DNA of 64,000 bases from a virus (Duplodnaviria; Heunggongvirae; Uroviricota; Caudoviricetes), in the IMG/VR virus record IMGVR_UViG_3300035497_000275, positions 1 to 64,000 of that record; one strand, written 5' to 3'. Position 1 is the first letter of the stretch, and every line of letters starts with the position of its first letter. Under the pieces are notes generated by a model, which was given only the letters and a program-made list of their open reading frames with translations, ran no database searches and was not told the origin of the DNA. Below, piece by piece: positions 14,471-54,279 of the stretch. The position numbers and the translations under genes were made by a program.

Positions 14471-14487
14471 CTTGCATTTATGGTTAT
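14471..14487 (-). promoter_or_regulatory. conserved 17-bp motif ATAACCATAAATGCAAG (copy 1)
   Basis: Exact match to the motif also found at 27628, 45318, 50171 and 54263; about 30 nt upstream of the 14440 start. Confidence 0.4.
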
Positions 14488-16667
14488 GTAGTTAAAAAAG
14501 AATTATAGAACATATCCCGAAGCTGGATGATATGTGTTGGATGATCTTCTTGGGCGGAAAGATTCATCACGAATCCATAGAACTGATTTTCAAGAGGTGT
14601 CTGCAACGAACCCATATACTTGAAATGTCCTTGGCGGAAAATTGTATGAGCCATTGACCGCATCTTCTTCCAGAGTTTATAATAAGACAGTTTGAACTTC
14701 ACCATGAATCCAACGCTATCCTCTACCACAAAACCCTCAATCACATGACCATCATACAAATAATCGTCAGTCATGATCTCATCATACCAATTGTAGAAAT
14801 CATGCCAATTCTGAATCTGAATCGCTCGTTTCTTTACCTCGAAGCCAAAATCCTTTCCAAGTTGGACAAGCTGCGAATACGAATACTTTTCAAATTCGAT
14901 CTCATTTTTCACTACATCCAGCAGGAACAAATGTGACTTATCATATTTGATAATATGAGGATCATGCTCCATATCTACACATTCAAACACGAATGTCACA
15001 TTCTTCTGCTTCATGTACTCTTTCAGCACATCCGCATTTTTGACGTTGGCATAGAACATATCATGCAACCAGTCAGAAAATTCTCCAGTAGGATCGGACT
15101 TGCTCGTGATAAAGAAATCATCCAGTTCGGCATCATAAGATACCATTCCAAGAAATCCATTCTCTTTCACATAAGCCGTGACAGGGAACCTGAATTTATG
15201 CTGGAGCATATCAAATCTTGTTTCTGGACGCTCGTTGACATTAAAGAATTTCGGATAGGCTCTTGCAACAACATTGCCAGTTACCGTATTGATAAACAAT
15301 CCTCTGGCCTTTGTTGTCTGCTCATTCCATTTCTTATCATAGAAGGCATTGCGAGTGAAATTGAAAGACGAAATATTTCCGAACTTCTTTTCGTTAATGT
15401 ACTTATTGCGCCGCATCTGGTCAACCAAATCCATTACCGTGGATTCTTTTTCAGTATACTTTTCAGGAATTTCTTCGTCCTGCTGCCTGAATACCGTATT
15501 CCGAATACTGATCGGATGGAAACCATCTGCATCCAGCGTTACAACTCGCAAATCCTTTCCGAATTCCACGCTGCCTTCCAAATCAAAACAACGGTCTGAA
15601 ACTTGAATCGGCAAATCCTGTGTATTTCGATGACCAAACACCTGATATACATTCTCAGGCATCAGTGTATCAAAACAATGAACAACATCTACATACTCAC
15701 TATATTTACCGACACCACGAATCATCTGGTCTGACGCAACCATTGTCAGATTATCAGGAATCATGCTCAAACCAGCGTGTGTGACAAGAACTGTCTTACC
15801 TCCATATGTATAATAGGCGCATTGACTCAGTTTTCGATACAACATTCTGGCAATCTTTGTATCCAGTCCGCTCATTTCAAGCTGCCTTCTTGTTACACGC
15901 TCAAATTCCGGGGACTTCGACACACCACCATGCGCCCAATACCAAAGCCAGCGTTCATGATTTCCTTCCAGCAGGATCACATTCGGACGATCCATAATAC
16001 TGTACAGGAAATTGATGACTTCAACATTTTCAATTCCACGGTCAATATAATCGCCGCAGAAAATGTACAGTTCATCATCCTGAATCCCATCATTCAAATA
16101 CTCCTGAAGGACGGTATTACAACCGTGGATATCACCAATATGATGGATTTTCTTAAAGTTGGAGAAATCCATTGGACGATACCAAATCTTGTCCAACTCG
16201 TCAGGCTGAATCACCGTCACACCCGCTGGAATCTTCTGCATAGCAAACCGGGAATACATATTATCAATGACTTCCTCTGGAACTTGCTTGTAGTATGGTC
16301 TGTTTTTATTTCTCCGTTTACATTCCTCAATAGGAACTGTGGTGAAATCAACGCAGTACATTCGATATCGGTAAGTTTTTGCCATATCCTTATAACGGTT
16401 GATCTCTGCCGTTTTAGAATTTGTAGCATCCACCACCACGAATTCTCCACGCTGCATTCTGGCTTCGAGCATCTGGAACAGTAATTGCCAAACTGTTTTA
16501 TCGTTACCCTGACTGATCCCCATTGAGCCATCCACTTGCATCACCGGGGACTGACACATCAGACGAATATTATCAGCGGAAAGCGTAAACTGTTCCAAAC
16601 CATGCTCTTTGATGTAGGTGGACTTTCCTACGCCAGCCGCACCACGCATCAATAACAATACTCGCAT
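14484..16667 (-). CDS. Pnkp-like RNA repair enzyme: polynucleotide kinase + calcineurin-type phosphatase + ligase-like adenylyltransferase
   Basis: 727 aa. N-terminal P-loop LLLMRGAAGVGKSTY. Central metallophosphatase motifs IGDIHGC, GDYIDRG, GNHE. C-terminal YVKENGFLG resembles nucleotidyltransferase motif I (KxDG/KEDGSL of RNA ligases). Same domain order as bacterial Pnkp. Confidence 0.75.
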   Translation of the reverse strand: MRVLLLMRGAAGVGKSTYIKEHGLEQFTLSADNIRLMCQSPVMQVDGSMGISQGNDKTVWQLLFQMLEARMQRGEFVVVDATNSKTAEINRYKDMAKTYRYRMYCVDFTTVPIEECKRRNKNRPYYKQVPEEVIDNMYSRFAMQKIPAGVTVIQPDELDKIWYRPMDFSNFKKIHHIGDIHGCNTVLQEYLNDGIQDDELYIFCGDYIDRGIENVEVINFLYSIMDRPNVILLEGNHERWLWYWAHGGVSKSPEFERVTRRQLEMSGLDTKIARMLYRKLSQCAYYTYGGKTVLVTHAGLSMIPDNLTMVASDQMIRGVGKYSEYVDVVHCFDTLMPENVYQVFGHRNTQDLPIQVSDRCFDLEGSVEFGKDLRVVTLDADGFHPISIRNTVFRQQDEEIPEKYTEKESTVMDLVDQMRRNKYINEKKFGNISSFNFTRNAFYDKKWNEQTTKARGLFINTVTGNVVARAYPKFFNVNERPETRFDMLQHKFRFPVTAYVKENGFLGMVSYDAELDDFFITSKSDPTGEFSDWLHDMFYANVKNADVLKEYMKQKNVTFVFECVDMEHDPHIIKYDKSHLFLLDVVKNEIEFEKYSYSQLVQLGKDFGFEVKKRAIQIQNWHDFYNWYDEIMTDDYLYDGHVIEGFVVEDSVGFMVKFKLSYYKLWKKMRSMAHTIFRQGHFKYMGSLQTPLENQFYGFVMNLSAQEDHPTHIIQLRDMFYNSFLTT

Positions 16668-16789
16668 TGAATCTTCCTTTCTTATTTATTTTTGTTATCA
16701 GTTGCTTTGGGTACAACGCCACATTTGCGTTCCAAACTTGCGTTTTGAACGCCTGTGGCGTTTAGATTGGAATAGATAACAGGATTAAC

Positions 16790-17569
16790 TTAGGAACTGA
16801 AAGCCGGGGCGACCCCACGCGAGTTGCGAGAGTAGCTGCTGTTCGCCGACCCGTCCGTATACACACGGCAGAAGTAGGTCGTGTAGGACGAGTTGACAGA
16901 GCGCAGCCAATTCCAATCCTTATCACCGTTGACATTCAACTTGAAATACGGTGTATTCTCCTTGGCATACAACGCATACCAGTGACCTTCACCGGGAGTT
17001 CCATAGAAACTGCGACCATACAACTCCTGTTCAGACTTCAACCACACACTATCAACAGACTTTACAATTTCGCCGTTTTCATTGGCGGTATATTTCCAAA
17101 CAGGCTTAACAATGGTCTGAAGTTCATCCGACATATTATTGAAGAAATCATCGTTCAGCCAGACACGACTATCAGAAGTCCCCCAATAACAGGATTCACC
17201 ATTTTTCTTCATGGGAATCTCGTCTTTGTACAGACCTTTTATATCCCACGAAATCGGAGCCTTACCGCTGCCATCCGCCAAATCATCATGGTCAAAATCC
17301 ATGATCTGATAAACGGCATCAAAGCCATTCTTCATGTGATCTGTCTTAGTTGCTCCAAGTGCAAAGTATGTTCTTGCCAGACCAGCCTTTCCGATACGGT
17401 CAATCTCTTCCCAAGAAATCTTATCCAGATCGACCAACGGCAAATTCAGAGGAAACAAAAAATCAGAATTGCTTGCGCCGTCCAGTTTCACAGTTACAAC
17501 ATTTTCGCTTTTGACGATATGCAAACTCGGATAACGGTTCAAAACATTCTGATCAATGCGGATATCCAT
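16790..17569 (-). CDS. hypothetical protein
   Basis: 259 aa ORF; no recognisable motif. The 3' end of the gene (16790-16920) is noticeably GC-richer than its surroundings. Confidence 0.45.
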   Translation of the reverse strand: MDIRIDQNVLNRYPSLHIVKSENVVTVKLDGASNSDFLFPLNLPLVDLDKISWEEIDRIGKAGLARTYFALGATKTDHMKNGFDAVYQIMDFDHDDLADGSGKAPISWDIKGLYKDEIPMKKNGESCYWGTSDSRVWLNDDFFNNMSDELQTIVKPVWKYTANENGEIVKSVDSVWLKSEQELYGRSFYGTPGEGHWYALYAKENTPYFKLNVNGDKDWNWLRSVNSSYTTYFCRVYTDGSANSSYSRNSRGVAPAFSS

Positions 17570-18656: not shown

Positions 18657-18696
18657 AATTCATTCATCCTTTCACATTTAAACTTTGAAATATAAT

Positions 18697-18765
18697 ACAC
18701 AAGATACGGAATCGAACCGCAATCTCCGTGTTCATCACGGTATTCTTCCATTGAACTATCTCGTG
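18697..18765 (-). ncRNA. tRNA-like element or degenerate tRNA (5-nt anticodon loop)
   Basis: Acceptor stem CACGAGA/TCTTGTG, D-arm GTTC-AATGGAA-GAAT with G18G19, T-arm TGCGG-TTCGATT-CCGTA. The anticodon arm is CCGTG-ATGAA-CACGG, so the loop is only 5 nt, or 7 nt without U33. 69 nt. Confidence 0.4.
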
Positions 18766-18834
18766 ATATTATTGCATTTATCGTTATTTATGTAAGTTTT
18801 AAGAGGCATAATACCCCTTAAAACCTCAAGCAAA

Positions 18835-19806
18835 TTACTTGTACATATAATCCCGGAATTCGGCGTACTCATCATATTTGCTTGATAGAATATGTTTTGT
18901 CTTGGTCGTATAGGATTCTATTTCTGTCATGCCAAACAGCACCCGGATCGTATCATAATCCGCACGATCAATTTTACCGTGCTGCTTTTCGTATTGATAG
19001 ACACGATAGTACAGGCCAGACAGATAAATTCGATTCCAGCGAAAGATTTTTCCCGCATTTTCAGCGGCTTTATTCGCTGATGTGACCAGACTATTTAACT
19101 GCTTGACGGCGAACACAGCATTTTTATAACTGCGGAACAAATACTCGGATTGTTGATACCACAATGTTGTGCCGCCGAACTTATTAGAATCGTAGGACTC
19201 CGCATCCCGATAGGATACCAGAATTGACATTGCCCTTTTGGACAATTTAATCTGTTCTCCCGTAGCAGGATGAATAATTGAACCTTCGTCCTCGTTGATA
19301 TCTGTTTTAAGAATGTCTGGAAGATTTTTAACATCAATCCCATACCAAACCAATGTCGCAGCAGAACGAAACGTGTCAAACTCTGTTCCACGATTTTCAA
19401 ATGCCGCCTGAATGGAATTAAACAAATCATCGTAATCTACGAAATAAAATTTTTCATAGTATTCAGAACGGTTAATGTCGTTGAAATAAATATCCCGCAA
19501 CTGGATCAACGGCGAATCTGTTCCATTCCCTGTTTCATACATCCACTTCATGAAATCGTTAATTTTGCATTTGTAGGGGTTAAAACTGTTGCTTGTCATA
19601 AGACTGGACATAGAAAACATTTCAATCAAGTCTTGACGCTTGAGATCATTATAGGGAACATCAGGCTTCAAGCCGAAGAATCTAACCAGTAGAGCGGAGA
19701 TATTACGCTTGCTTGTGTCATTCATGTTAATGGATGACTCTTCAATGTAACGATCAACCAAATTTTGATCCAGCATAATATCACCTCTTCCTAAACATAA
19801 TAACAA
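18835..19806 (-). CDS. hypothetical protein
   Basis: 323 aa ORF; no recognisable motif. Confidence 0.45.
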   Translation of the reverse strand: MLLCLGRGDIMLDQNLVDRYIEESSINMNDTSKRNISALLVRFFGLKPDVPYNDLKRQDLIEMFSMSSLMTSNSFNPYKCKINDFMKWMYETGNGTDSPLIQLRDIYFNDINRSEYYEKFYFVDYDDLFNSIQAAFENRGTEFDTFRSAATLVWYGIDVKNLPDILKTDINEDEGSIIHPATGEQIKLSKRAMSILVSYRDAESYDSNKFGGTTLWYQQSEYLFRSYKNAVFAVKQLNSLVTSANKAAENAGKIFRWNRIYLSGLYYRVYQYEKQHGKIDRADYDTIRVLFGMTEIESYTTKTKHILSSKYDEYAEFRDYMYK

Positions 19807-19848
19807 ATTTCAGAATGATTGTCAAGAAGTTTTTTGCATTTATTGTTA

Positions 19849-20211
19849 TTATGCTGAAGTCCCAAGGCCAAGGCTAACCAGCATGGCGTAATTGATTTCC
19901 TGCATCTTTTCTTCCGTCACGCTGCCGACATAGTTCTCCAGTCTACTCTTGTCGATTGTCCTGACCTGTTCCAGCAGCACCGTTGAATCCATTGATAAAT
20001 TACTTTCGTTGCATGGAATTTCGATGTGCGTGGGCAGATTCTTCTTTTGCTTAGAAGTCAGAACCGCAACAATGATCGTAGGACTGTAATGATTCCCGAC
20101 ATTATTCTGAATTACGACCACGGGACGAGTGCCGCCCTGTTCAGACCCGATAGCGGGACTGAGATCGGCATAGTAGATTTCGCCTCTCATGATATTCTTC
20201 ATAACGAACAC
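19849..20211 (-). CDS. MazF/PemK-family endoribonuclease toxin (EndoA-like)
   Basis: RGEIYYADLSPAIGSEQGGTRPVVVIQNNVGNHYSPTIIVAVLTS..LPTHIEI..LLEQVRTIDKSRL is near-collinear with Bacillus EndoA/MazF. The likely true start is ATG at 20202 (MKNIMRGE), with a GGAAGGTG RBS. Confidence 0.8.
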   Translation of the reverse strand: MFVMKNIMRGEIYYADLSPAIGSEQGGTRPVVVIQNNVGNHYSPTIIVAVLTSKQKKNLPTHIEIPCNESNLSMDSTVLLEQVRTIDKSRLENYVGSVTEEKMQEINYAMLVSLGLGTSA

Positions 20212-20301
20212 CTTCCAACAACCTTTCTTGTTTTTCTGGTTATAGTATATACCACCTCACAAGAAAAGTCAATACCTTTTGTCAGGAAATATTGCCAAAT
20301 T

Positions 20302-21012
20302 TTACTCTCTGTCATAAAATTTGCGGGAAAACTCTCTGATTTCGTTGCACATTTGGCAATATTCTCCAGATAAGATTTCAACCATCGACTGGTCAAAGAT
20401 CAGTCTGCTTGTAATGGAGTTTTGGTTTTCTAAGTCGAAAACTCCTGCGTAGATACGATTTTGGTCATCGTTCATGCGAACTTGGAAACAAATCGTGCGG
20501 CAAAGCTGCATAGACTTACTCCGTCCATCCAACTGTGCATTGATGATATGGGAAATCCGCTCCTGCTGATGACGAGGAAGTTCCCCCAACAAGTAAGGAT
20601 CAACCACCAGAATCACCGTATCCAGTTCCTTAATATACTGGTTCAGATGATCACCGAAATAGGATGTATCCATAAAATCAAACACGTTGTTCCAGTGCCG
20701 CAGCTTACCAACCTTCATCGTCTGCGGCTTTTTATGTAGGGCTTCAATCTTATATGTTTCAGTGGGAGTTCGGCAGATGAATTCCGTTGCGCTCACCGCC
20801 CGAATCTCGATCAGAACATCGTCTGAAAAAACTGACAGTGCAAACAGCCTCCGAAATTCTAAAAATCCGTTCAAGACACATTCAACCCCCGTGGCCTTGA
20901 ATTGTTTCCAGTCATCAATTGTAATCTGAAACAGGTCATAATTGCTCAGAATGGCAACAAATGAAAGGATTTTTTCTTTTTCAACAATTTCCACATTGCT
21001 CATTTCAAACAC
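20302..21012 (-). CDS. hypothetical protein, paralog of 32702..33418
   Basis: 236 aa. Shares GFLEF(R/E)RLFA, V(I/V)L(V/I)VDP and (R/K)IYAGV(F/Y) blocks with the ORF at 32702..33418. Confidence 0.5.
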   Translation of the reverse strand: MFEMSNVEIVEKEKILSFVAILSNYDLFQITIDDWKQFKATGVECVLNGFLEFRRLFALSVFSDDVLIEIRAVSATEFICRTPTETYKIEALHKKPQTMKVGKLRHWNNVFDFMDTSYFGDHLNQYIKELDTVILVVDPYLLGELPRHQQERISHIINAQLDGRSKSMQLCRTICFQVRMNDDQNRIYAGVFDLENQNSITSRLIFDQSMVEILSGEYCQMCNEIREFSRKFYDRE

Positions 21013-21031
21013 ACTCTCCCAATTCTCTCAA

Positions 21032-21060
21032 TTGACAATCCCGTTTTTTGAACTTATAAT
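21032..21060 (+). promoter_or_regulatory. consensus sigma-A promoter TTGACA-17-TATAAT
   Basis: TTGACA at 21032..21037, 17-nt spacer, TATAAT at 21055..21060; about 100 nt upstream of the XRE gene. Confidence 0.6.
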
Positions 21061-21165
21061 TTGACTATATCTACAACAACTATCCGACATATTTTTAATA
21101 TTATCAGATAACTTTCACAATGTCAAGCTAAAATGAGATTATTTTCTCACAGGAGGTAGCAGTAT

Positions 21166-21528
21166 ATGGATTCAAGTATCTACTGGCGGATCAAAGAACT
21201 TTGCGACAGGCGAGGAATCACCATTACAAAGTTAGAAAAAGACTGCGGATTTTCCAATTCTACCGTCAAGAAATGGAAAAGTACGAGTACCCCAAACGCC
21301 GACACAATTCTTATCGTAGCAAAATACCTGAACGTTTCTACCGATTACCTCTTTGGTAACACCGACATTTGTACGCCAATTGACGAATACATAGGTAACG
21401 AAAATTATGTGAAGATGCAACGGAAAATGTCACGGATGAATTCAAAAGACCAAGAACGTGCGCTTCAAATGATTGATCTCGGCTTTCAAACCGCTTACGA
21501 TGATCAGGACAAGAATAAAAGCGAATAG
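21166..21528 (+). CDS. XRE-family helix-turn-helix transcriptional regulator (repressor-like)
   Basis: 120 aa. N-terminal HTH_3-like IKELCDRRGITITKLEKDCGFSNSTVKKWKS. Confidence 0.75.
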   Translation: MDSSIYWRIKELCDRRGITITKLEKDCGFSNSTVKKWKSTSTPNADTILIVAKYLNVSTDYLFGNTDICTPIDEYIGNENYVKMQRKMSRMNSKDQERALQMIDLGFQTAYDDQDKNKSE

Positions 21529-21580
21529 TCCTGAATATTGGACTTTGCATCTGTTATAATCCCTTATGAGGTGAACACCA

Positions 21581-22180
21581 TTGCTTAGATATGCCTATAT
21601 TTGCAACCAAGTCCTCCAGCTTTATCGGCAAATGCCGACTATTCAATTCCCCATTGACCCAAGACTTATCTTAGACCAAATTGAAAACTGCAAGACTATG
21701 ACTTATCAGACCTTCGCTGAAATCAACCACTGTTCGATCCAAGAAGTGTACACGATCTGCGAAAGTCAAAGCGGCTGCACCCATTATGATATTGTCAAAG
21801 ATCGTTACCTTGTCCTATTTAATTCCTCCACTGACAATAACAACGTGGCAGGAAGAATCCGCTGGACATTAGCACATGAATTAGGTCACATCATATTGAA
21901 GCACCTCCTTTATGTGGCTGATAAAAAGATTGCGGAACGAAATTTCAGAAATTTGTCCAACCCGGAATTAGAATCCGAAGCGGACTATTTCGCCTCCCTT
22001 CTGTTGGCTCCTATGCCGCTTTATAAGCAGCTTTCTATCCAGACGGCAAAGGATATTCAAACCACTTTTGGCTTGTCCTGTGAGGCCGCTGAATGCCGTT
22101 GGCGGGATTATCTGCGCTGGACACGCAATCACACGAAAACCGCATGGGAAAATGACTTGAAAAGGATATATCAATCTTAA
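21581..22180 (+). CDS. ImmA/IrrE-family zinc metallopeptidase
   Basis: 199 aa. HELGHIILKH (HExxH). TTG start with GAGGTGA RBS. Directly downstream of the XRE regulator. Confidence 0.75.
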   Translation: MLRYAYICNQVLQLYRQMPTIQFPIDPRLILDQIENCKTMTYQTFAEINHCSIQEVYTICESQSGCTHYDIVKDRYLVLFNSSTDNNNVAGRIRWTLAHELGHIILKHLLYVADKKIAERNFRNLSNPELESEADYFASLLLAPMPLYKQLSIQTAKDIQTTFGLSCEAAECRWRDYLRWTRNHTKTAWENDLKRIYQS

Positions 22181-22501: not shown

Positions 22502-22589
22502 TGGCGACAGCGGAGGGATTTGAACCCCCGGACGATTTCTCGCCTACGGTTTTCAAGACCGTTACCTTCAACCACTCGGTCACGCTGCC
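22502..22589 (-). tRNA. tRNA-Ser (anticodon UGA), CCA encoded
   Basis: Acceptor GGCAGCG/CGCTGTC, 3-bp D-stem, anticodon arm ACGGT-CTTGAAA-ACCGT, long variable arm, T-arm GGGGG-TTCAAAT-CCCTC, CCA. 88 nt. Confidence 0.85.
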
Positions 22590-22621
22590 ATGTATCTCCC
22601 TGTTTTACAGGGAGATTTTTG

Positions 22622-23350
22622 TTAAGCAACAGTTTCGTTATCCTCTGCGTTATCGTTCTGCTGCTTATTCTTGAATCTCAGGTTATTAGGCCAAATTGTA
22701 ACGGGAATTTTCTCTACCCCGAACATCTTATAGACCAGATAGGAAGTGTACCCATCAAACAGCACCATGTTCTCGTCCACCAGAATCGGTGTTTCACAAG
22801 CACCATGACTGCGGTACTCATCCAGACGCTTGTTCAACTTCTCGTTACGAGGCTGCGTCTTAGCGAAACTACTGGTGATCTTCACATCCGTCAGCAGAAC
22901 ATTCCTGCGCTCCAGATTGAAATATTCACAATCCTTCTGTGCGTCCTCCAGCGAAAAGTAAATGTTATCCTCCATCAGCTTCAGGACGTTGTTGGTTTCA
23001 CTACGAACATAATAGATCGTGGCAACTCGTCCATCAGGAAGAACATTCGCCTCCATCATTTCAATTACGGCTTGCTCAATCTGATACTTGATCTGACCGC
23101 TGGCCTTGATCGTCTTTTTACCACGGCACTCCGGGCAGACATAGGTTTTCACCGCATCAGGATTCATCAGAACATTCAAGAAGGAATCCGTCATCTTATC
23201 AACCGCTTCCGCCAGCGAATGGCAATCCTTTGTCACAGAATGACCAAGCCGAATCGTTCCATTGCCGCCGCACACTGGACACTCAATCCGCTTAATGGTT
23301 TTCAGATGGTAAATGGTATCACCGATGTTTCCGTTAATCTTCAGTTCCAT
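22622..23350 (-). CDS. hypothetical protein with CxxCxGxG zinc finger and possible ParB/Srx-like C-terminal region
   Basis: 242 aa. CPVCGGNGT and CPECRGKKT repeats. ETPILVDENMVLFDGYTSYLVYKMFGVEKIPVTIW resembles the ParB N-terminal motif but lacks GxxR. Confidence 0.4.
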   Translation of the reverse strand: MELKINGNIGDTIYHLKTIKRIECPVCGGNGTIRLGHSVTKDCHSLAEAVDKMTDSFLNVLMNPDAVKTYVCPECRGKKTIKASGQIKYQIEQAVIEMMEANVLPDGRVATIYYVRSETNNVLKLMEDNIYFSLEDAQKDCEYFNLERRNVLLTDVKITSSFAKTQPRNEKLNKRLDEYRSHGACETPILVDENMVLFDGYTSYLVYKMFGVEKIPVTIWPNNLRFKNKQQNDNAEDNETVA

Positions 23351-23487
23351 AGTTTTACCTCTTTCTTGTTTTTATAGTTATAATGTCTAAAAAATAAATA
23401 GGAAAGATTTTTATTTCTATCTTTTTACCTATTAACTCCTGACACTGATGATTATAATTGAATTTATCGTTATTGTCAATAGGTTTT

Positions 23488-26373: not shown

Positions 26374-27213
26374 TTAATTATAGGACGCAACAAAAACAAA
26401 CTGGTTGATGTAGTCCGGCTGCTGTGTGAAGATAGGAATTTCCATATCAAAGCACCACTTATTTCGCACGATCTCACCAATCTTCACAGGCTTCTTTACA
26501 CAACAAGTACCACGCTTACAAGGTGTAGAGAAATCATTCCAGTTGATCCCCTTTTCTGTGAAAAGCATATCCTGAATCTTATCGCAGGATTGGTTCATCA
26601 ACTGCTTGTGGGAGAAATTAGCCTGACCGACAGATTGAATACTGTTCCGTGTGCAATCTACCTGTCTCCACACGAAGTAATTGGCAACATCATCCTTCGG
26701 CACATTGAATACACGGGCATCAAACAATGCCTTATCAAACCGGGATGTGTAAATCTGCGCCAGCTTCAAGGCATCCCGATCCACATTCGGATCATTTGTT
26801 CCGCCTTCATACCAGTCTGGCAAAGTCTCATTGCCCCATTCATCCACGTTCTTACGCCATGCGGCATTGAAGGCCATTGTTGCCATAGACGCTGAGACAC
26901 TACACATCTTCTGAAGCGTATTATCAAACCAAGAATCGCTTGCAATCGTCTGATAATCGACCAGCAACAGAGAAATTTCATCCGACTGTGTATAACCAAG
27001 CACACAGCCCTGAATATTTTCGCAGAGATACTTCATCGTATCCTGCATCGTTTTCATCAAAATCTGATCAAAAGGTTTCTTAAATCCTCTTGTAAATGTG
27101 TGAAAGGCTTTCCCATCAATCCGAATGATAACAGGCATACGCCGCACCAAATGCGCCCTTGTGACATTCTCGTAGGTTTTCATACGGTTGCCAAGATTAT
27201 CACGCTTATCCAT
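26374..27213 (-). CDS. Thg1-like protein (tRNA-His guanylyltransferase / 3'-5' nucleotidyltransferase family)
   Basis: 279 aa. KTYENVTRAHLVRRMPVIIRIDGKAFHTFTRGFKKPFD and YTQSDEISLLLVD match the Thg1 catalytic RIDG..FH.F and SDE blocks. Confidence 0.8.
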   Translation of the reverse strand: MDKRDNLGNRMKTYENVTRAHLVRRMPVIIRIDGKAFHTFTRGFKKPFDQILMKTMQDTMKYLCENIQGCVLGYTQSDEISLLLVDYQTIASDSWFDNTLQKMCSVSASMATMAFNAAWRKNVDEWGNETLPDWYEGGTNDPNVDRDALKLAQIYTSRFDKALFDARVFNVPKDDVANYFVWRQVDCTRNSIQSVGQANFSHKQLMNQSCDKIQDMLFTEKGINWNDFSTPCKRGTCCVKKPVKIGEIVRNKWCFDMEIPIFTQQPDYINQFVFVASYN

Positions 27214-27634
27214 TATTCTGTTCCTCCTTTAAAATTCCCAAGTCAATTAACTGGTTGATTTTCTGCAAGAAACGCTCCTGAATCAGCAAGTCGTTCTCAC
27301 ATTCAATGTCTTTTTCCTGAAAGAATTGTTTGAAAGAATAGCCGCACATTCCACCATAGGACGTAAAATAAAACCTGAATTTCCCGGCGTATGCTTTAGC
27401 GTTCTCATCGTAAATTCCAATCCAATAGGAAGTATTCGTTCCAAACTGTTCATCCGCTGCTGTCCCAGCAGATTCACAGATACACCACGCCTGAATCCCG
27501 CTGTTCCTCCAAAACAACGGTTCATGTATCAGACTTCTATCTGCGATCCGCAATTTACGGATTTTTGCAGGAGTTAAATTGTACTTGTTTTCTACCGTAG
27601 GTTTTCTCATGTTCTCCACCTTATGTAATTGCAT
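27206..27634 (-). CDS. hypothetical protein (likely starts at 27610, MRKPTVENK)
   Basis: An internal ATG with AAGGTGGAG RBS sits directly after a copy of the 17-bp motif. Confidence 0.4.
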   Translation of the reverse strand: MQLHKVENMRKPTVENKYNLTPAKIRKLRIADRSLIHEPLFWRNSGIQAWCICESAGTAADEQFGTNTSYWIGIYDENAKAYAGKFRFYFTSYGGMCGYSFKQFFQEKDIECENDLLIQERFLQKINQLIDLGILKEEQNNG

Positions 27635-27644
27635 TTATGGTTAT
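27628..27644 (-). promoter_or_regulatory. conserved 17-bp motif ATAACCATAAATGCAAT (copy 2)
   Basis: 16/17 match to the motif; immediately upstream of the RBS of the 27610 start. Confidence 0.4.
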
Positions 27645-30039: not shown

Positions 30040-31377
30040 TTACACCTCCAGATATGTTTTTGCCTGTTCCATCAAAACAGACCTTTTATTTTCCAATGTG
30101 CCTTCCACCACGGCATCCAGCAACTTTTTCAAAACTGCTCCAAGCTGGATACCTTGACGGAAACCAAGTTCCATCAGGTCTTTTCCGCTGACCGCCAAAT
30201 CCTTTAAGGTATAGCAGTCCTGCTCGGCCTGAATCTCCGCATAGATTTCCCAAATCTTTGAAAGGTTCGCTCGATCATCCGCAATGGGAGTCTGCGCCGC
30301 TTTATCTGCTGCCTTGACGTGCAACAGGCGTTCAAACTGTTCCGCTCCATAACGGTTCAAACAACGGCGCACAGAGGCTTTTGTGGGCGCAATCTCATGG
30401 TCATGAAATTCCACAAGCTGCGTAACAGTTTCCACCGTTTTATTATCAAAACGAAGATTCTTCAAGGAATTTTCCGCTATTCCAGCACTGATCACAGAAT
30501 GGTGATAGAAATGTCCATTCCCCTGTTCATCCAGCGTCATGCAATGGGGTTTTCCAAGGTCATGATAAAGTAGCGCAAGGCGGACATACAAATCCTTCGG
30601 CGCATAGGAAACTGCCGTGACAGTATGATTCCACACGTCCATATAATGATGAGGATTATGCTGCAAAAATCCAACGGCTGGCGTGATTTCCGGGATGATG
30701 ACGGCGAAAATCTCCTGATAACAGCGAAGCATGGTATAGCAAGCGTCACTCAGCAGGATTTCAGACAGTTCTCCAATCATCCGCTCTGGCGCAATTTGCT
30801 TCAGCAAATCCTTATGACGGAACATGGCTTCCTCTGTCCGCTTTTCCACAAAGAATCCAAACCGGGACGCAAAGCGAATGGCACGGAGAATCCGCAAAGC
30901 ATCCTCCTGAAACCGCTTATCTGGATTTCCAACACAGCAGATTTGTCCAAGTTTCAAATCAAAACGGCTTTTGGAATAGTCGATCACTCTGCCGCTGCTG
31001 TCTGCCGCCATTGCGTTGATCCGAAAATCACGGCGGGACAAATCTTCCTTTAGGTCACTGACGAATTCCACAGAATCAGGATGACGATGATCCGAATACA
31101 CACCATCTTTACGAAACGTGGTGATTTCATAACCTACACCATCCAGCAGGACAGTCAATGTTCCATGCTTCAATCCCGTTTCAATAACACGGAAATTACG
31201 GAAAATAGATTTCATCTGTCCCGGCAACGCACTGGTGCAAATGTCCCAATCATGCGGCGTTCTTCCAAGCAGACTATCCCGGACACATCCGCCCACCACA
31301 TAGGCGGAACATCCCGCATCCGTCAAAATATTCATCAACTGACGGGGAGCATCAGGAATTTCAATATAGGTGTCCAT
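30040..31377 (-). CDS. CCA-adding tRNA nucleotidyltransferase with C-terminal HD domain
   Basis: 445 aa. Pol-beta head motif AYVVGGCVRDSLLGRTPHDWDICT. C-terminal HD signature LLYHDLGKPH. Confidence 0.85.
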   Translation of the reverse strand: MDTYIEIPDAPRQLMNILTDAGCSAYVVGGCVRDSLLGRTPHDWDICTSALPGQMKSIFRNFRVIETGLKHGTLTVLLDGVGYEITTFRKDGVYSDHRHPDSVEFVSDLKEDLSRRDFRINAMAADSSGRVIDYSKSRFDLKLGQICCVGNPDKRFQEDALRILRAIRFASRFGFFVEKRTEEAMFRHKDLLKQIAPERMIGELSEILLSDACYTMLRCYQEIFAVIIPEITPAVGFLQHNPHHYMDVWNHTVTAVSYAPKDLYVRLALLYHDLGKPHCMTLDEQGNGHFYHHSVISAGIAENSLKNLRFDNKTVETVTQLVEFHDHEIAPTKASVRRCLNRYGAEQFERLLHVKAADKAAQTPIADDRANLSKIWEIYAEIQAEQDCYTLKDLAVSGKDLMELGFRQGIQLGAVLKKLLDAVVEGTLENKRSVLMEQAKTYLEV

Positions 31378-34037: not shown

Positions 34038-34091
34038 TTATCCATCCTTCCGTTTTCTCAGTTATTATTCTAATTGTTTTTCTGGTTATTG

Positions 34092-34328
34092 TCAAGAGTT
34101 TTCTTCTGAAATCTGTAAATTTTCTTTCCTGCTTTTCCGCAAGGCTCTTTGATTCCAGTATTGGTGCTGCTCATTCTTCTGTAAATGGTGGCACTGTTTG
34201 CCCAAGCAGTTTTTCCGCTTGATCTCATGTACCGTCAAGGCTCCGCAATGCAAAGCACAATACGCTGCCGGGTTTGCTGGCCTACCGCCGTAAATGGTTT
34301 TCTCCATCTTACTTTTCCTCCGTTCCAA
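34092..34328 (-). CDS. hypothetical protein
   Basis: 78 aa ORF. Confidence 0.3.
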   Translation of the reverse strand: MERRKSKMEKTIYGGRPANPAAYCALHCGALTVHEIKRKNCLGKQCHHLQKNEQHQYWNQRALRKSRKENLQISEENS

Positions 34329-39513: not shown

Positions 39514-40164
39514 CTACATTTCAAAGGTAACAATTCTTCCGCTGTCAAGCTGATAATAGTTTTCTTCGTTCAGTAAGTCCTCACCAAACTTTTCAAAGTC
39601 GAAGTATTTTTCCACGACATTGTTCGTATCAGTCCCGACATAACCCAATTCATACGCCTCTTCTCTGCCTAATTCCTCCGTATCCTCAAACACACAGCCG
39701 ATAATGCTTCTGTCCTGATAGTCCAGCGGATAGGCGTTAAAGGCTTCTTCCACTTCATCCTCCGTCAAGTCGTGTTCGTCCATGACGATTTCTTTTTCCT
39801 CTGCTACGATGTTCTGGAAAAATTCTTTTGCATCCTCGCTGCACAGTCTGTCATAGACTGGCTGAATTTTCCGACACAGTTCAACGCCTTCCTGATAACG
39901 GCTATCGCCTCTTTCAATGCCGTATCCCAATTTTCCAATATCCTGATCAAATTTCCGCAAGGCGTTATATTCCGCCTCTGTCAAGATCGTTTCAATTTCT
40001 CCATAGGCGTTCCATGTATGCCCACAATAGCAAGCACCATGTAAATTTACGCCTCCGAAGTAGTGACCACATTCAAACCGCAAAGGATTTTCTTCAATGT
40101 ATGCAAGACTGTCCCGATCTTCGCTATCCTTGATCCTGTACAAAAATACCTTACTCATAATCAA
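39514..40164 (-). CDS. hypothetical acidic protein
   Basis: 216 aa ORF. Confidence 0.4.
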   Translation of the reverse strand: MIMSKVFLYRIKDSEDRDSLAYIEENPLRFECGHYFGGVNLHGACYCGHTWNAYGEIETILTEAEYNALRKFDQDIGKLGYGIERGDSRYQEGVELCRKIQPVYDRLCSEDAKEFFQNIVAEEKEIVMDEHDLTEDEVEEAFNAYPLDYQDRSIIGCVFEDTEELGREEAYELGYVGTDTNNVVEKYFDFEKFGEDLLNEENYYQLDSGRIVTFEM

Positions 40165-40631
40165 TTTTCCCTTCTGCGTCTTTGACGCTTTTCTATGATC
40201 TCTTGCGCTCTGACGGGTTTATTTTTCCGCTTGTCTGTTTGTCCCGCCTTGATCCGTGTGGGTTTTCCAGCCTCTAAAAGCTGCTTATCCATACCGTGTT
40301 CATAGGCTTTATCCCGCATTGTTTGAGAATACGATTTTTCCGTTGTCCGTGAATTGCTGCATAGGCCAAAGGTTTCCTTGTATTCCGCTATGGTCATTCC
40401 GTGGGATTCTCTGATATGGCTTCCCAATCTGGTATAGGATTTTCCGCAAATGTGGCAAATGACTTTCCCGGTTTCGTCCCTCTGGATCGTGCCGTATTCC
40501 GGTAAACTGTGGATTTTTCCGCCGTCTCTGAAATACTTGTAACAACCCTGACACAATCCTGTATAGCTTTTTGGGGAGGGTTTTCCGCAATGGCTGCAAA
40601 TGATCATTTTTCCATCACTCCAGAAAATCAT
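40161..40631 (-). CDS. Ros/MucR-like zinc-finger protein
   Basis: 156 aa. ICHICGKSYTRLGSHIRESHGMTIAEYKETFGL matches the Ros/MucR C2H2 pattern C..CG....L..H....H.....EY....GL, with an extra N-terminal CxxC...CxxC ribbon. Confidence 0.5.
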   Translation of the reverse strand: MIFWSDGKMIICSHCGKPSPKSYTGLCQGCYKYFRDGGKIHSLPEYGTIQRDETGKVICHICGKSYTRLGSHIRESHGMTIAEYKETFGLCSNSRTTEKSYSQTMRDKAYEHGMDKQLLEAGKPTRIKAGQTDKRKNKPVRAQEIIEKRQRRRREN

Positions 40632-44344: not shown

Positions 44345-44378
44345 GGTTTAAACCTCCTATAATTGTTTGTATGGTTAT

Positions 44379-44711: not shown

Positions 44712-44726
44712 TTTAATAACCTCCCT

Positions 44727-44957
44727 TTAAAACTGAAAACCCTTTTTGTAAAGTCTATTGATAGCTTCATCATAGCTATTATAAACTCGCTTGCTTCCAT
44801 TCTCAAATTTTACGGCGGCTGCTCCATTTTCCAGTTCTTCAACCGTGACTTCTTCGCCGTTAATGTTATACAATGTTTCAACCATTTTAAAAGCCTCCAT
44901 ATAATTGATTTTGTGGTTATTTGTTTTTTGGAATAGGGCTTTTTTGTGGAAAACCAT
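44727..44957 (-). CDS. hypothetical protein
   Basis: 76 aa ORF. Confidence 0.35.
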   Translation of the reverse strand: MVFHKKALFQKTNNHKINYMEAFKMVETLYNINGEEVTVEELENGAAAVKFENGSKRVYNSYDEAINRLYKKGFQF

Positions 44958-44990
44958 TTAGAAAACCCGCCTTTATTGACTTTATTGTTA

Positions 44991-45185
44991 TTAGTTGTTA
45001 AAATTAAGAATACCAGTATTTAAAAACCGCTGAAAAGTATTGATACAATCATTAAAATAGAAATTTGTACTAATCATATAATAGTTCATGATTGCGTTTA
45101 TAATTCCTACGCAAGCCGGGAAATTATACTTGTTTTGTTTTTTGGCTTCGCTATACATTGCGTTTATTGTATCGTAGTAACCCAT
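44991..45185 (-). CDS. hypothetical protein (first gene of the leftward block)
   Basis: 64 aa. GGGAGG RBS preceded by a degenerate copy of the ATAACC motif. Confidence 0.3.
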   Translation of the reverse strand: MGYYDTINAMYSEAKKQNKYNFPACVGIINAIMNYYMISTNFYFNDCINTFQRFLNTGILNFNN

Positions 45186-45317
45186 TTTATAAACCTCCCA
45201 TTTATTGCATATACGGTTATTTAGTAACTATTTAACGGATCAGCGGGTTTTTGTTTGGCTTATTTGATCCCGCTGCTTTATTTCCCCTTCCTCTTTACAA
45301 GTATATGTTACCACATT

Positions 45318-45334
45318 ATAACCATAAATGCAAG
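45318..45334 (+). promoter_or_regulatory. conserved 17-bp motif ATAACCATAAATGCAAG (copy 3, rightward)
   Basis: Exact match, in the divergent control region. Confidence 0.4.
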
Positions 45335-45479
45335 AACTTTTTTCGATTTTAGGCGTTTAAAATTGCACAAAAAAGTATAATATATTTTGTGTATATTGCA
45401 TATGTGGTTATACGCTGCTATGTGGTTTTGATTATTAGATTATGCTGTATTTGGTACTATGTTTTGCTGATTTGATTAT

Positions 45480-45770
45480 TAGGTTTTTCAGCGGATCGGA
45501 AAAGCACGGCGAAAACGATTGTATCACGGCGGGAAAAGTAACGGCGGGACAACTGGACAAAACCCGGAAAAGCAGCCGGGACAAATCCCGCCTTGATCCC
45601 GTGGGAATGTGGGAGCCGTTCCCGGTTGAAATTTGGCCTATGACGGCGGATCAAGTTTTGTTCGGTTTTTGGGATTTGGCGAACAAAACCCGTTGAAAAC
45701 CCGTGCATTTCATACGGCGGATCGGTGGAAAGACGGCGGGAGGGTTTACACTTCGGATCGGTTTTGATTT
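45480..45770. repeat. iteron-like repeats in the divergent intergenic region (putative origin or control region)
   Basis: AAAACCCG(G/T) three times (about 45556, 45683, 45694), CGGGACAA twice, and (A/G)CGGATC(A/G)G five to six times, each carrying a GATC. No credible ORF. Confidence 0.4.
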
Positions 45771-46030
45771 TCGCCCAGCGGTAGAGTACATCTACTCAAC
45801 ATCCAACCCCAAAAATCCAGCCCACATCAGTCCAGTCGAAAATCCCCTATTTTTCATCGGTTTTTGCATCGGGAAATTCCCTGAAATCCAGACTACATCA
45901 AACATCCAGCGTCTACCCTCTTGCTGCCGTCCTGTACTTTTTGCCTATGCAAAACCTATTGAATCTGCGGATGTTTGGAATTCTGATCACGATGAGGGCA
46001 AAAATAATAACAATAAATTCAAGAAAGTTG

Positions 46031-46059
46031 TTGACATTTGATATGAAAAGGCTTATAAT
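46031..46059 (+). promoter_or_regulatory. consensus sigma-A promoter TTGACA-17-TATAAT
   Basis: TTGACA 46031..46036, 17-nt spacer, TATAAT 46054..46059; 87 nt upstream of the recombinase gene. Confidence 0.65.
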
Positions 46060-46145
46060 GATAATTGAAGATAGGCACTGACAATCAAAGATTTTCAAGC
46101 TAATCTGGGATATGAACTGGACAATAAAAATCGGAGGTCTTTACG

Positions 46146-46898
46146 ATGACGAATAAAATTGTTGAAAATTCCGAAAATGTGAAAATCGAATTTGCTCCTT
46201 GGTTCGAGGCCATGATCGACCAAAAGGCGCAAACAGCAGCTAAAGTCGCCGCTCCTATTATGGATGAAAGCTATTGTGAGCGTGAACATATCAGTCATGA
46301 ATCTGTTGAGCCGATTCGGTCACTGGATGATGTGGAGCGGATCAAGAATTACTTTTTAACCCGTAAGGGGCATGGAAACAACAGTATTCGCAATTACGCC
46401 TATTTTGTCCTTTCGCTGAATATTGCACGGAGGGCGGGGGATATTTTAAATCTCCATGTATATGACGTGCTGAATAAGGACGGTACTTTTAAAACCCACG
46501 TCACTTTCGAGCATGAGCAAAAAACCGGGAAAAAATCTGACGTGCTTTTAAATAGTAAGGCAGTTGAAGCGTTGACTATGTATTTTAACACATTGGGCGA
46601 ATATAAAATGTCTGACTGGCTTTTCCCCAAACTGAATGATCCTGCTGAACATATCAGTGTGGATGGAATGAGGCGGATGCTTCAACGGGCAGTTAAAGAT
46701 TTGGGGTTGGACATTCATATTGGGACACATTCTCTGCGTAAGACTATGCCTTATCATGTTATCAGTAACAGCACAAATACTGAGGACGAAGTTATTATTT
46801 CACAATTCCTCAAGCACAATGATGTAAAAACCACTTATCACTATATAGGGCGCAGCCAGAGCGAAATGGACGCATTTGTGGAGGCGCATGGTATTTAA
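46146..46898 (+). CDS. tyrosine-type site-specific recombinase/integrase (short, catalytic domain only)
   Basis: 250 aa. ARRAGDI (Arg), GTHSLRKT (HxxR), TTYHYIG (Tyr) in the order of the tyrosine recombinase catalytic residues. Confidence 0.75.
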   Translation: MTNKIVENSENVKIEFAPWFEAMIDQKAQTAAKVAAPIMDESYCEREHISHESVEPIRSLDDVERIKNYFLTRKGHGNNSIRNYAYFVLSLNIARRAGDILNLHVYDVLNKDGTFKTHVTFEHEQKTGKKSDVLLNSKAVEALTMYFNTLGEYKMSDWLFPKLNDPAEHISVDGMRRMLQRAVKDLGLDIHIGTHSLRKTMPYHVISNSTNTEDEVIISQFLKHNDVKTTYHYIGRSQSEMDAFVEAHGI

Positions 46899-48363: not shown

Positions 48364-48366
48364 TTT

Positions 48367-50166: not shown

Positions 50167-50170
50167 GCAT

Positions 50171-50187
50171 ATAACCATAAATACAAG
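50171..50187 (+). promoter_or_regulatory. conserved 17-bp motif ATAACCATAAATACAAG (copy 4)
   Basis: About 40 nt upstream of the 50227 start. Confidence 0.4.
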
Positions 50188-50226
50188 TATTGGAGGGATA
50201 TATTATAGATAGGAGTATGATAATGT

Positions 50227-50421: not shown

Positions 50422-50433
50422 GGAGAATGAAAT

Positions 50434-52441: not shown

Positions 52442-52445
52442 GCCT

Positions 52446-53012: not shown

Positions 53013-53025
53013 GGAGGTCAAAAAA

Positions 53026-53814
53026 ATGATTAATTGTAAAACGATTGCTGCTGAACGAAAGCAAAAGATGAAAGAGTACATTGATAAGAACAATTTGAAC
53101 ATCACGCTTGCAGTATTTCAGGTCGGTGATAATCCAGCATCAAATTCTTATATCAAAGGAAAACACAAAGATTGTGATGAAGTTGGAGTTGATTTTCTAC
53201 ATATCAAATATGACGAAAGTGTGAGTACAGAAGAAATTATTCGTGATATTCAGTGGGCTAATATTAATACTTCAATTAACGGAATTATTGTTCAACTTCC
53301 GTTGCCGAAGCATTTGGATCAGGGAAAAATTCTGAATGAAATTTGTGATGAAAAGGATGTAGATGGGTTTAAACATAACAGTTCTTTTGTTCCGTGTACT
53401 CCAAAAGGTGTCATGATGATTCTCGATCATATTGGTTATGACGTTGATGGAAAATTGTGTTGTGTAATTGGTCGTGGAGCAGTTGGGAAGCCAATGGTAG
53501 ATGAATTAACAGCGAAGAATGCGACTGTTCTTTGGTGCAATAGTCATACACCAGAAAAACTTCTTGATGAATATGTTATGATCTCAGATGTTGTAATTTC
53601 TGCGGCAGGAGTCCCAAAATTGATTCATTCTTATACTGAAGATCAAATTATTATTGATGTTGGTATTAATCGTGATGAAGATGGGAAACTGTGTGGTGAT
53701 GTAGATAAGGACTGTTATCATGATGATTTTCAGATTACTCCTGTTCCCGGTGGTGTTGGCCTGATGACCAGAGTTGCGTTGTTAGAAAATACGGTATATG
53801 GAGGTAAGAGATAA
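53026..53814 (+). CDS. folD: bifunctional methylenetetrahydrofolate dehydrogenase/cyclohydrolase FolD
   Basis: IIVQLPLP, TPKG, VIGRGAVGKP, PVPGGVG. ATG at 53026 with AAGGAGG RBS; the track ORF starts earlier. Confidence 0.8.
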   Translation: MINCKTIAAERKQKMKEYIDKNNLNITLAVFQVGDNPASNSYIKGKHKDCDEVGVDFLHIKYDESVSTEEIIRDIQWANINTSINGIIVQLPLPKHLDQGKILNEICDEKDVDGFKHNSSFVPCTPKGVMMILDHIGYDVDGKLCCVIGRGAVGKPMVDELTAKNATVLWCNSHTPEKLLDEYVMISDVVISAAGVPKLIHSYTEDQIIIDVGINRDEDGKLCGDVDKDCYHDDFQITPVPGGVGLMTRVALLENTVYGGKR

Positions 53815-54266
53815 TGGGACAGATCAAGGTTGTTGACGGTGATTTGCTCAATGCGAAGGAATCCTATATTGCCCATCAAGTAAATTGTTATGGTGCAATG
53901 GGACGTGGAGTTGCTTTACAGATTCGTCATATGTATCCTGATGTTTATAGACGATATAAAGCATATTGTGAAGAACATCGTGTAAAAAATCTACTTGGTC
54001 GTATTTTGATTATCCCGACAGATGATGGTCGCATTATTTGTAATTTGTTTGGTCAAGAGGGTTATGGTCAAGGAAAATGCAACACGGATATCGCTGCTTT
54101 GACAAAGTGTTTCCAAAGTCTTGAGAAAATTGTTCCGCATTCCGAGTCCATTGCAATGCCGTATCAGATTGGATGTGGTCTTGGAGGCGGAAATTGGGAT
54201 TTGGTACTTCCTTTGATTCGAGATATTTTTGTTCATCATACGGTTGTTCTTTACAGGTACAAATAA
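53814..54266 (+). CDS. macro-domain protein (ADP-ribose / Appr-1''-p binding or processing)
   Basis: 150 aa. HQVNCYGAMGRGVALQI and IGCGLGGGNW resemble the macro-domain N..G.GGV.AI and GIFG blocks. Confidence 0.55.
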   Translation: MGQIKVVDGDLLNAKESYIAHQVNCYGAMGRGVALQIRHMYPDVYRRYKAYCEEHRVKNLLGRILIIPTDDGRIICNLFGQEGYGQGKCNTDIAALTKCFQSLEKIVPHSESIAMPYQIGCGLGGGNWDLVLPLIRDIFVHHTVVLYRYK

Positions 54267-54279
54267 CCATAAATACAAG
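54263..54279 (+). promoter_or_regulatory. conserved 17-bp motif ATAACCATAAATACAAG (copy 5)
   Basis: Ends 9 nt before the ATG at 54288 and overlaps its RBS. Confidence 0.4.

Follow-up and report, generated by a model that had tools for sequence, protein, structure and literature searches.

A repeated, gene-oriented 17-bp box in an SPbeta-like gut phage is probably the operator core of an MrpR/SroF-like repressor

Introduction

SPBRE, the SPbeta repeated element, reportedly goes back to Lazarevic in 1999. Chromatin affinity purification sequencing (ChAP-seq), electrophoretic mobility shift assays (EMSA) and reporter fusions showed that the master repressor MrpR (YopR, SroF), which has a tyrosine-recombinase fold, targets it (PMC10516654; Kohm et al., 2023), and SPBRE reporters demonstrated repression in SPbeta from boxes placed in a promoter spacer or over a start site. 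In phage phi3T, the crystal structure of SroF on the 26-bp Phi3TRE box shows a monomer clamping an asymmetric, A-tract-rich operator, and SroF sites are spread across the genome (bioRxiv 10.1101/2025.11.27.690993). Here we describe a 17-bp box repeated in a 64,000-nt stretch of a Caudoviricetes genome (IMG/VR record IMGVR_UViG_3300035497_000275, positions 1 to 64,000; hereafter, the window), and argue that it is probably an operator core of the SPBRE/Phi3TRE type, bound by a 313-aa MrpR/YopR/SroF homologue encoded in the same window.

For comparison, we scanned the SPBc2 genome and observed about 12 SPBRE copies, all co-oriented with genes, all in the early region (64–130 kb), and none in the late operon. 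Most of these copies form the 17-bp spacer of TAGACA-N17-TATAAT, while three (yopV, yopM, yonX) abut the ribosome-binding site and have degenerate hexamers.

Results

Identification of the box

Four exact copies of ATAACCATAAATRCAAG are present in the window (14471–14487 on the minus strand; 45318–45334, 50171–50187 and 54263–54279 on the plus strand), with none expected from 100 dinucleotide-preserving shuffles, and the copy at 27628–27644 on the minus strand matches at 16 of 17 positions. Allowing for up to three mismatches yields 23 matches against 0.65 expected, and the skeleton ATAAC-N-A-N-A-N-A-NN-CAA, 22 matches against 0.07 expected. With a weight matrix derived from the box sites themselves we observe 24 strong sites at 19–26 bits, separated by a clear gap from two marginal sites (36010 and 22670) at 13–16 bits; the same matrix gives about two matches above 12 bits in random sequence. 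The consensus of the 24 strong copies is ATAAC-N-A-N-A-A-A-T-R-CAA-K, where A1, T2, A4, C5, A9, A11, C14 and A16 are invariant, positions 6, 8, 10, 12, 13 and 17 are variable, and the information content is highest at ATAAC and CAA. Upstream of the box, no further conservation is seen beyond a T-rich tendency.

Unbiased k-mer motif discovery found the box again, both in the window and in one close relative; in the distant relatives L043, L050 and L052 it returned only AT-rich low-complexity words. The repeated motif is real and looks functional. A second over-represented word, AACGGAAAAATGA, was rejected as an element, as it sits in coding or start-codon context.

Position of boxes relative to genes

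All 24 strong boxes lie on the strand of the local genes, that is, on the minus strand to the left of approximately 45300 and on the plus strand to the right of it; the exception to this strand split is a face-to-face pair in the control region, 45318(+) and 45395(–), 60 bp apart. No strong box is located inside a coding sequence, all being intergenic or overlapping a stop codon. At five sites at least (838, 8997, 14471, 42961 and 54263), TAA at positions 2–4 of the box is the stop codon of the upstream gene, and, by the table of open reading frames (ORFs), this is probably the case at 12106 as well. For about 13 boxes the next start codon is 8–18 nt past the motif, which constitutes nearly the whole intergenic spacer; in several boxes the last base doubles as the opening G of the Shine-Dalgarno sequence, and two boxes precede tRNA or tRNA-like genes, by 2 and 5 nt.

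Boxes are dense in the early arms and replication genes and sparse in the late structural region: locus L054, which is the late region of the same phage, has one box in approximately 13 kb, and relatives have one or two boxes in approximately 14 kb of late genes. A terminator-then-promoter logic was rejected, as we saw no enrichment of terminator-like hairpins.

The preliminary description of this stretch gave correct coordinates for the five exact or 16/17 copies, and the degenerate copies it reported are real (12106, 42961, 44362, 44904, 45204, 45395 and 60343, as well as the spacer copy at 62216), while eleven sites escaped it (838, 8997, 18771, 19833, 20227, 23365, 23457, 34073, 44975, 46007 and 62283). 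Its view of the motif as a phage-specific, orientation-locked DNA element tied to transcription is right, and the motif is not equally frequent in coding regions, from which it is essentially absent.

Boxes and sigma-A promoters

Consensus scans yield few near-perfect sigma-70-type promoters facing genes, and show that the box is the exact 17-bp spacer of three of them (23479–23451, 34095–34067 and 62210–62238; class a). It starts directly after the –10 hexamer of one promoter (20272–20244; class b) and ends 7 nt upstream of the –35 hexamer of two others (19825–19797 and 46031–46059; class c), with a third class c promoter at position 16700 of L054. Seven copies are associated with promoters in this way, three in spacers, one after –10, and two plus one in L054 upstream of –35, compared to about 17 copies with no recognizable promoter. 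Conversely, out of seven sigma-A-type promoters that match at least 10 of 12 consensus positions and face a gene on their own strand, six carry the box in a fixed register, and the lone box-less promoter, at 21032, drives the XRE repressor gene.

The box as a sigma-A promoter itself was rejected: no register gives a hexamer with both A2 and T6, except in one or two copies (TACAAT at 62283 and TGcAATAAT at 18771). We found no gene for a sigma factor in the window.

The same registers bear on a possible role of the motif at the RNA level, whether in processing or, within polycistronic transcripts, as an unstructured leader or an enhancer of translation. The invariable sense orientation, the position immediately 5' of ribosome-binding sites and the A/U-rich, unstructured sequence agree with such a role; however, the use of the box as the 17-bp spacer of three promoters and its fixed distance of 7 nt to the –35 hexamers of three others are constraints at the DNA level, one copy in a relative (L101) is inverted, and the two copies in front of tRNA genes exclude a role in translation alone. 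The Z-scores of eight folded motif regions were between –1.2 and +1.4, showing no structure beyond shuffled controls, and a comparison with Rfam yielded only tRNAs and no family match for the motif. We consider a role in RNA highly improbable.

The candidate repressor

A profile of 11 MrpR homologues selects ORF 18835–19806(–) among the 505 ORFs of the window (hmmsearch, E=1.9e-4); its actual product is 313 aa long (18835–19776), compared to 325 aa in MrpR. Alignment of 23 homologues of this product with the MrpR family (hhalign) yielded 84% probability and E=7.5e-6, with 231 collinear columns across both domains. The AlphaFold model of the 313-aa protein has a mean pLDDT of 91.8, and its five best Protein Data Bank (PDB) matches by Foldseek are MrpR (8A0A), YopR (8BJ6, chains C and A, and 8BPZ) and the DNA-bound phi3T SroF (9RD5), the latter providing the best TM-score, 0.58; lambda integrase, Xer and Cre rank below MrpR, YopR and SroF in this structure search. 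By profile and model, the 313-aa protein is predicted to be a distant member of the MrpR/YopR/SroF family.

The repressor gene lies behind a class c promoter, in an operon headed by a class b promoter, and is followed by a conserved hairpin and a box, so that the repressor's own expression unit is surrounded by boxes. The class b promoter, 20272–20244(–), drives first the PemK-like toxin gene and, after it, the repressor gene, an arrangement kept in L009, while the arrangement around the box at 18771 is kept in both L009 and L101.

Other DNA-binding proteins of the phage should be considered as well, namely, the XRE-type helix-turn-helix (HTH) protein (21166–21528), the Ros/MucR-type regulator (40161–40631) and the 250-aa tyrosine recombinase (PF00589; 46146–46898), for any of which the box could be an operator. 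All three are encoded in the window, the genes for the recombinase and the Ros/MucR protein are conserved in relatives, Ros/MucR proteins bind AT-rich DNA, and the recombinase gene is flanked by boxes and a consensus promoter in every relative examined. Yet XRE repressors normally bind palindromes as dimers, whereas the box is asymmetric; a repeated, oriented 17-bp box has no precedent for these proteins, while it has one in the MrpR/SroF family; and the recombinase looks like an enzyme, as its six catalytic residues are kept (invariant in 24 homologues) and profile similarity to MrpR is absent. With no BLAST similarity to MrpR either, it was rejected as an MrpR analogue. We regard binding of the box by one of these three proteins, rather than by the MrpR-like one, as unlikely.

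Conservation of boxes in relatives

Relatives were recovered via the exact motif, exact-protein look-ups and one late gene. Fourteen IMG/VR loci recovered via the exact motif are relatives at approximately 70% nucleotide identity and keep the box at orthologous places, with all four classes represented. The promoter at 34067–34095 has the orthologue TTGACA-ATAACCATAAATACAAG-TACAAT in about 14 related IMG/VR contigs, and in most of twelve late-gene loci the box before the yonJ-like pair and both boxes of the tRNA promoter region are conserved. The variant boxes of distant relatives were found by inspecting orthologous junctions: the arrangement of the box at 46007 is kept in L047, and with variant boxes in L052 and L050; at the 50171 junction, the box is retained in L047, with a variant in L052. 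The box at an orthologous junction of L052 is ATAACCAAWAAAATAAC, and that of L101 is ATAACAAnAATTACAAG.

The MrpR-like protein of L101 is 43% identical to that of the window; position 11 of the box is T in seven of eight L101 copies, compared to A in all 24 copies of the window, and one L101 box is inverted, 5 nt upstream of a –35 hexamer. An operator appears to fit better than a promoter or an RNA signal, because the box drifts together with a fast-evolving DNA-binding protein and can be inverted; this co-drift of box and repressor comes from a few observations and is not a statistical test. In L102, the single GTDB genome match, no recognizable box is seen near the MrpR-like gene.

The phage and its RNA polymerase

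Judging by the YonO homologue, the YonJ, YonG and YonD domains and the collinear early arm, the window belongs to an SPbeta-like phage from the human gut. The product of 55308–58475(+), 1055 aa, is similar to SPbeta YonO (BLASTP E=4e-9 over 474 residues), with its metal-binding motif GADFDSD aligned to DNDGD of YonO, and is a homologue of YonO, the single-chain two-barrel RNA polymerase of this Bacillus prophage. It is longer than the 839-aa SPbeta protein, and its extra C-terminal segment of approximately 90 residues resembles an HTH domain, the sole Pfam match, HTH_60, being weak (E=0.017). A DNA-binding domain fused to this polymerase class would bear on promoter recognition.

The exact polymerase protein is present on a 123.7-kb metagenomic contig, whose rightward genes carry YonJ_CC, YonG_N and YonD_N domains. 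In the left arm, the genes for replication, methylases and RNA repair are collinear with the SPbeta (SPBc2) early arm. The host is probably from Lachnospiraceae, based on the only GTDB match and on distant Enterocloster phage relatives. A megablast search with 12 kb of the window against GenBank phages, a back-translated search for the polymerase in IMG/VR and an exact-protein look-up for 6665–7840 produced no matches.

This polymerase is the first candidate for a reading in which the box is a promoter, or a promoter core, for phage-directed transcription. The sigma-A-linked copies would then be overlapping early/middle promoter pairs, and the stand-alone copies, internal middle promoters, with transcription beginning immediately ahead of the ribosome-binding site or tRNA. 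Such a role agrees with the orientation of all copies along the genes and with the placement of stand-alone copies 8–18 nt before start codons and 2–5 nt before two tRNA genes. Moreover, several operon heads have a box and no consensus sigma-A promoter, there is one box ahead of the yonK/yonJ-like pair and two ahead of the tRNA array with which the late region opens, the promoter recognized by YonO is not known (PMC5467207), and the HTH-like C-terminal segment points, weakly, in the same direction.

However, the box at 54263 precedes the methylase gene that heads the polymerase's own operon; boxes are concentrated in early and replication genes, with few in approximately 13–14 kb of late genes; the registers to sigma-A hexamers are exact (0 nt, 7 nt, or the 17-bp spacer); and L101 has an inverted copy. 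Several copies end on the G with which the Shine-Dalgarno sequence begins, so that a start at or beyond the box would truncate this sequence. The only mapped YonO-dependent start region in SPbeta is upstream of yonK, between yonN and yonK (PMC5467207); our SPBc2 scan found no SPBRE in this interval, and SPBRE itself is a repressor site. On balance, a promoter for phage-directed transcription seems rather unlikely. A mixed variant, with the stand-alone boxes serving as promoters of the YonO-like polymerase, perhaps via its HTH-like segment, and the repressor binding the same sequence, has, in our view, quite a slim chance; if true, one 17-bp element would be both a switch and a promoter, and the first promoter consensus for this polymerase class.

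The preliminary description correctly recognized the 55308 product as a phage RNA polymerase. It was wrong that the motif stays apart from canonical promoters, given the spacer, –10 and –35 registers described above. Its assignment of the motif to a middle or late promoter class for this polymerase is not the best-supported one, in view of the fixed sigma-A registers, the early density and the box before the polymerase operon, nor is an RNA processing site, in view of the absence of structure beyond shuffled controls and the copies before tRNA genes. A motif scan of relatives, which it proposed as a check, does find boxes at orthologous junctions, but their scarcity in late genes speaks against a late-promoter role. 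The promoter-class reading is further disfavored because the closest characterized counterparts, SPBRE and Phi3TRE, are repressor operators, and a repressor homologue is present in the window.

Features of the window

The boxes, promoters and selected genes are listed in Table 1.

Table 1. Boxes, promoters and selected genes of the window. Class a, the box is the exact 17-bp promoter spacer; class b, it starts right after –10; class c, it ends 7 nt before –35; class d, stand-alone box without recognizable hexamers (about 17 copies).
Feature	Position	Strand	Remarks
Box ATAACTATAAATGCAAT	838–854	–	Class d; TAA is the stop of gene 851–1807; TTG start 11 nt downstream
Box	8997–9013	–	Class d; TAA is the stop of gene 9010–9390; ATG 14 nt downstream
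Box	12106–12122	–	Class d; TAA is the stop of gene 12119–12847; final G begins the GGAGG ribosome-binding site
Exact box	14471–14487	–	Class d; TAA is the stop of the Pnkp/RNA-ligase gene 14484–16667; orthologous L101 junction also boxed
Box	18771–18787	–	Just past the repressor gene and conserved hairpin; 5 nt before tRNA-like gene 18697–18765
Candidate repressor gene (P0136)	18835–19776	–	313 aa, MrpR/YopR/SroF-like integrase fold; proposed box binder
Sigma-A-type promoter TTGACA-17-TATTAT	19797–19825	–	11/12, upstream TG; in front of the repressor gene
Box	19833–19849	–	Class c; 7 nt upstream of –35 of promoter 19825–19797, ahead of the MrpR-like gene
Box	20227–20243	–	Class b; directly after –10 of promoter 20272–20244 (TTGACT-17-TATACT)
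Consensus promoter, no box	21032–21060	+	12/12; contrast case; drives XRE-type HTH gene 21166–21528 and ImmA-like peptidase gene
Box	23365–23381	–	Class d; 92 bp downstream of the 23457 copy; 14 nt before ATG of gene 22622–23350
Consensus promoter TTGACA-17-TATAAT	23451–23479	–	Class a; spacer 23457–23473 is the box
Box, 16/17	27628–27644	–	Class d; ATG 17 nt downstream
Promoter TTGACA-17-TAGAAT	34067–34095	–	Class a; spacer 34073–34089 is the box
Weaker box, 19 bits	42961–42977	–	TAA terminates the upstream gene
Box	44362–44378	–	Class d; ATG 17 nt downstream
Box	44904–44920	–	Class d; tandem with the 44975 copy, 71 bp apart
Box	44975–44991	–	Class d
Box	45204–45220	–	Abuts the ribosome-binding site of the first leftward gene 44991–45185
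Exact box	45318–45334	+	Central control region; faces 45395(–)
Box	45395–45411	–	Central control region; points leftward
Box	46007–46023	+	Class c; 7 nt upstream of –35 of consensus promoter 46031–46059(+), which drives the 250-aa tyrosine recombinase gene
Exact box	50171–50187	+	Class d; lies past the UvrD-like helicase gene, ahead of the next gene
Exact box	54263–54279	+	Class d; TAA is the stop of the macro-domain gene; final G begins the ribosome-binding site of the methylase gene
Box	60343–60359	+	Class d; before a small gene and YonJ-like gene pair; kept in relatives L074–L087
Consensus promoter TTGACA-17-TATAAT	62210–62238	+	tRNA array; class a; spacer 62216–62232 is the box
Box	62283–62299	+	2 nt before tRNA-Glu (62302); kept in relatives
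RNA-repair/tRNA set	14484–16667, 26374–27213, 30040–31377, 31629–32705, 62096–63264, 18697–18765, 22502–22589		
DNA methyltransferase genes	9010–9881, 11252–11881, 12119–12847, 13949–14440, 54288–54929		

Directly upstream of the MrpR-like gene is a PemK/MazF-like toxin gene, 19849–20211(–), and the opposite strand carries the XRE-type HTH gene 21166–21528 and an ImmA-like M78 peptidase gene 21581–22180 with the box-less consensus promoter. This XRE/ImmA-like module looks like a second, ImmR/ImmA-style control layer, and the whole toxin/repressor/XRE/ImmA-like arrangement (19849–22180) is kept in L101. The gene of the Ros/MucR-type zinc-finger regulator, 40161–40631(–), identified with Pfam E=1.6e-10, is kept in relatives; to our knowledge, such a regulator is unusual for a Firmicutes phage.

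The recombinase gene adjoins a non-coding stretch of approximately 600 bp with a AGAGTACATCT[AG]CTCA box, kept in distant relatives (window region 45430–46898, compared with L047, L050 and L052). The contig of one relative ends within this stretch, a possible recombination site or genome end.

The RNA-repair and tRNA set is large: about ten tRNAs form an array, two further tRNA or tRNA-like genes stand alone, and the proteins include a CCA-adding enzyme, a Thg1-like enzyme, an RlaP nucleotidyltransferase and a Pnkp/RNA-ligase fusion. Five or more genes encode DNA methyltransferases, which differ in class (C5, N4/N6, D12, Dam), one gene apparently being split into C5 halves. Approximately 12 kb to the right of the window, L054 contains an isolated gene (16775–17269) among late genes, with its own consensus promoter and box; the product is a zinc-ribbon protein, one segment of which resembles the C-terminal domain of ribosomal protein L7/L12.

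Discussion

The placement and conservation of the boxes, together with the MrpR/SroF homology, suggest that the box is probably the operator core recognized by the 313-aa protein. One integrase-fold repressor monomer would clamp each box, and reading of an asymmetric operator by a single SroF-type monomer would explain why the box is non-palindromic and oriented. Boxes in a spacer or over a start site would exclude the host RNA polymerase from lytic promoters in the lysogen. Class c boxes, found at the repressor gene, the recombinase gene and the isolated late gene, may, speculatively, be neutral or activating; these and the boxes downstream of promoters may tune or reinforce control. The stand-alone boxes would be further binding sites, possibly acting as roadblocks against read-through into lytic genes; for example, the box directly behind the repressor gene may block read-through from its promoter into replication genes. 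Alternatively, they may merely raise the local repressor occupancy. The role of the stand-alone boxes is the weakest step of this explanation.

A number of observations weigh against the operator. About 17 of the 24 boxes have no recognizable –35 or –10 hexamer adjoining them, and no consensus sigma-A promoter was found for the leftward early arm (45185 to 34100), which has boxes at its head. We know of no established role for a mid-operon repressor site, and the strict co-orientation of stand-alone boxes is what would be expected of promoters. The 313-aa protein has only 14–16% identity with MrpR and is not matched by the MrpR models of Pfam, hence its placement as a distant family member. 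SroF contacts 24 of 26 bp, compared to a conserved core of 17–19 bp in the window. The box agrees with SPBRE and Phi3TRE at 8–10 of 17 positions, which, for AT-rich sequences, is not significant; the likeness of box sequences is, however, a weak criterion, as boxes are phage-specific even between SPbeta and phi3T. Finally, the phage encodes other DNA-binding proteins, the XRE HTH protein (21166), the Ros/MucR-type regulator (40161–40631) and the 250-aa recombinase.

If the box is indeed bound by the 313-aa protein, the SPbeta-type lysogeny switch would extend from Bacillus phages to a family of approximately 120-kb human-gut phages. This switch is unusual in having a monomeric, integrase-shaped repressor and long asymmetric boxes scattered over the genome, and our analysis predicts an operator, nominates a repressor gene and maps 24 putative target sites. 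It also raises a question not addressed by the Bacillus work, that of the role of repressor boxes between genes with no promoter nearby.

Comparison with known systems

T4 late promoters (TATAAATA) and T7-type promoters of 17–23 bp are likewise short oriented repeats before many genes, often over the upstream stop codon, and the center of the box, CATAAATR, resembles TATAAATA. However, the invariant ATAAC and CAA lie outside this part, the box is embedded in sigma-A promoters in fixed registers, and no genes for gp55- or gp33-like factors or T7-like polymerases were found in the window. A T4-type late promoter was thus rejected: the conserved part of the box is not the TATAAATA core, and the window has no gp55-like or sigma-like domains.

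Compared to SPbeta, the box sequence differs (ATAACCATAAATRCAAG in the window, ACAAATACAAAWAATATGTATATA in SPbeta), the density is approximately twice as high (24 in 64 kb versus about 12 in 70 kb), most copies have no –35/–10 flank, and there are additional registers, 7 nt before –35 and after –10. The repressor gene is located beside the PemK-like toxin gene and the XRE/ImmA module rather than in an sroA–F operon, and no arbitrium genes are seen in the window, nor were a Sar-type antirepressor or an intergenic LexA box found in it; the LexA search gave three GAAC-N4-GTTC matches, each within a gene and none of them significant. The SPbeta gap between yonN and yonK is 1.7 kb long, unannotated, and looks highly structured (L045 9152–10834, which is SPBc2 59152–60834, minus strand); the corresponding place in the window holds the tRNA array.

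At the same time, both phages belong to the same lineage by YonO, YonJ, YonG and YonD, and an integrase-fold repressor homologue is encoded in both. Both have repeated non-palindromic boxes of 15–24 bp at many intergenic sites of the early arm, oriented along the genes. The box architecture is identical, with the box being either the 17-bp spacer of promoter hexamers or abutting the ribosome-binding site, and boxes are absent from, or rare in, the late operon. Phi3TRE and SroF provide a further parallel, an asymmetric A-tract-rich operator read by a monomer, and it is to the DNA-bound SroF that the window protein has its best TM-score. The motif set is best explained as belonging to this known kind of operator, with an unusually high share of promoter-less copies.

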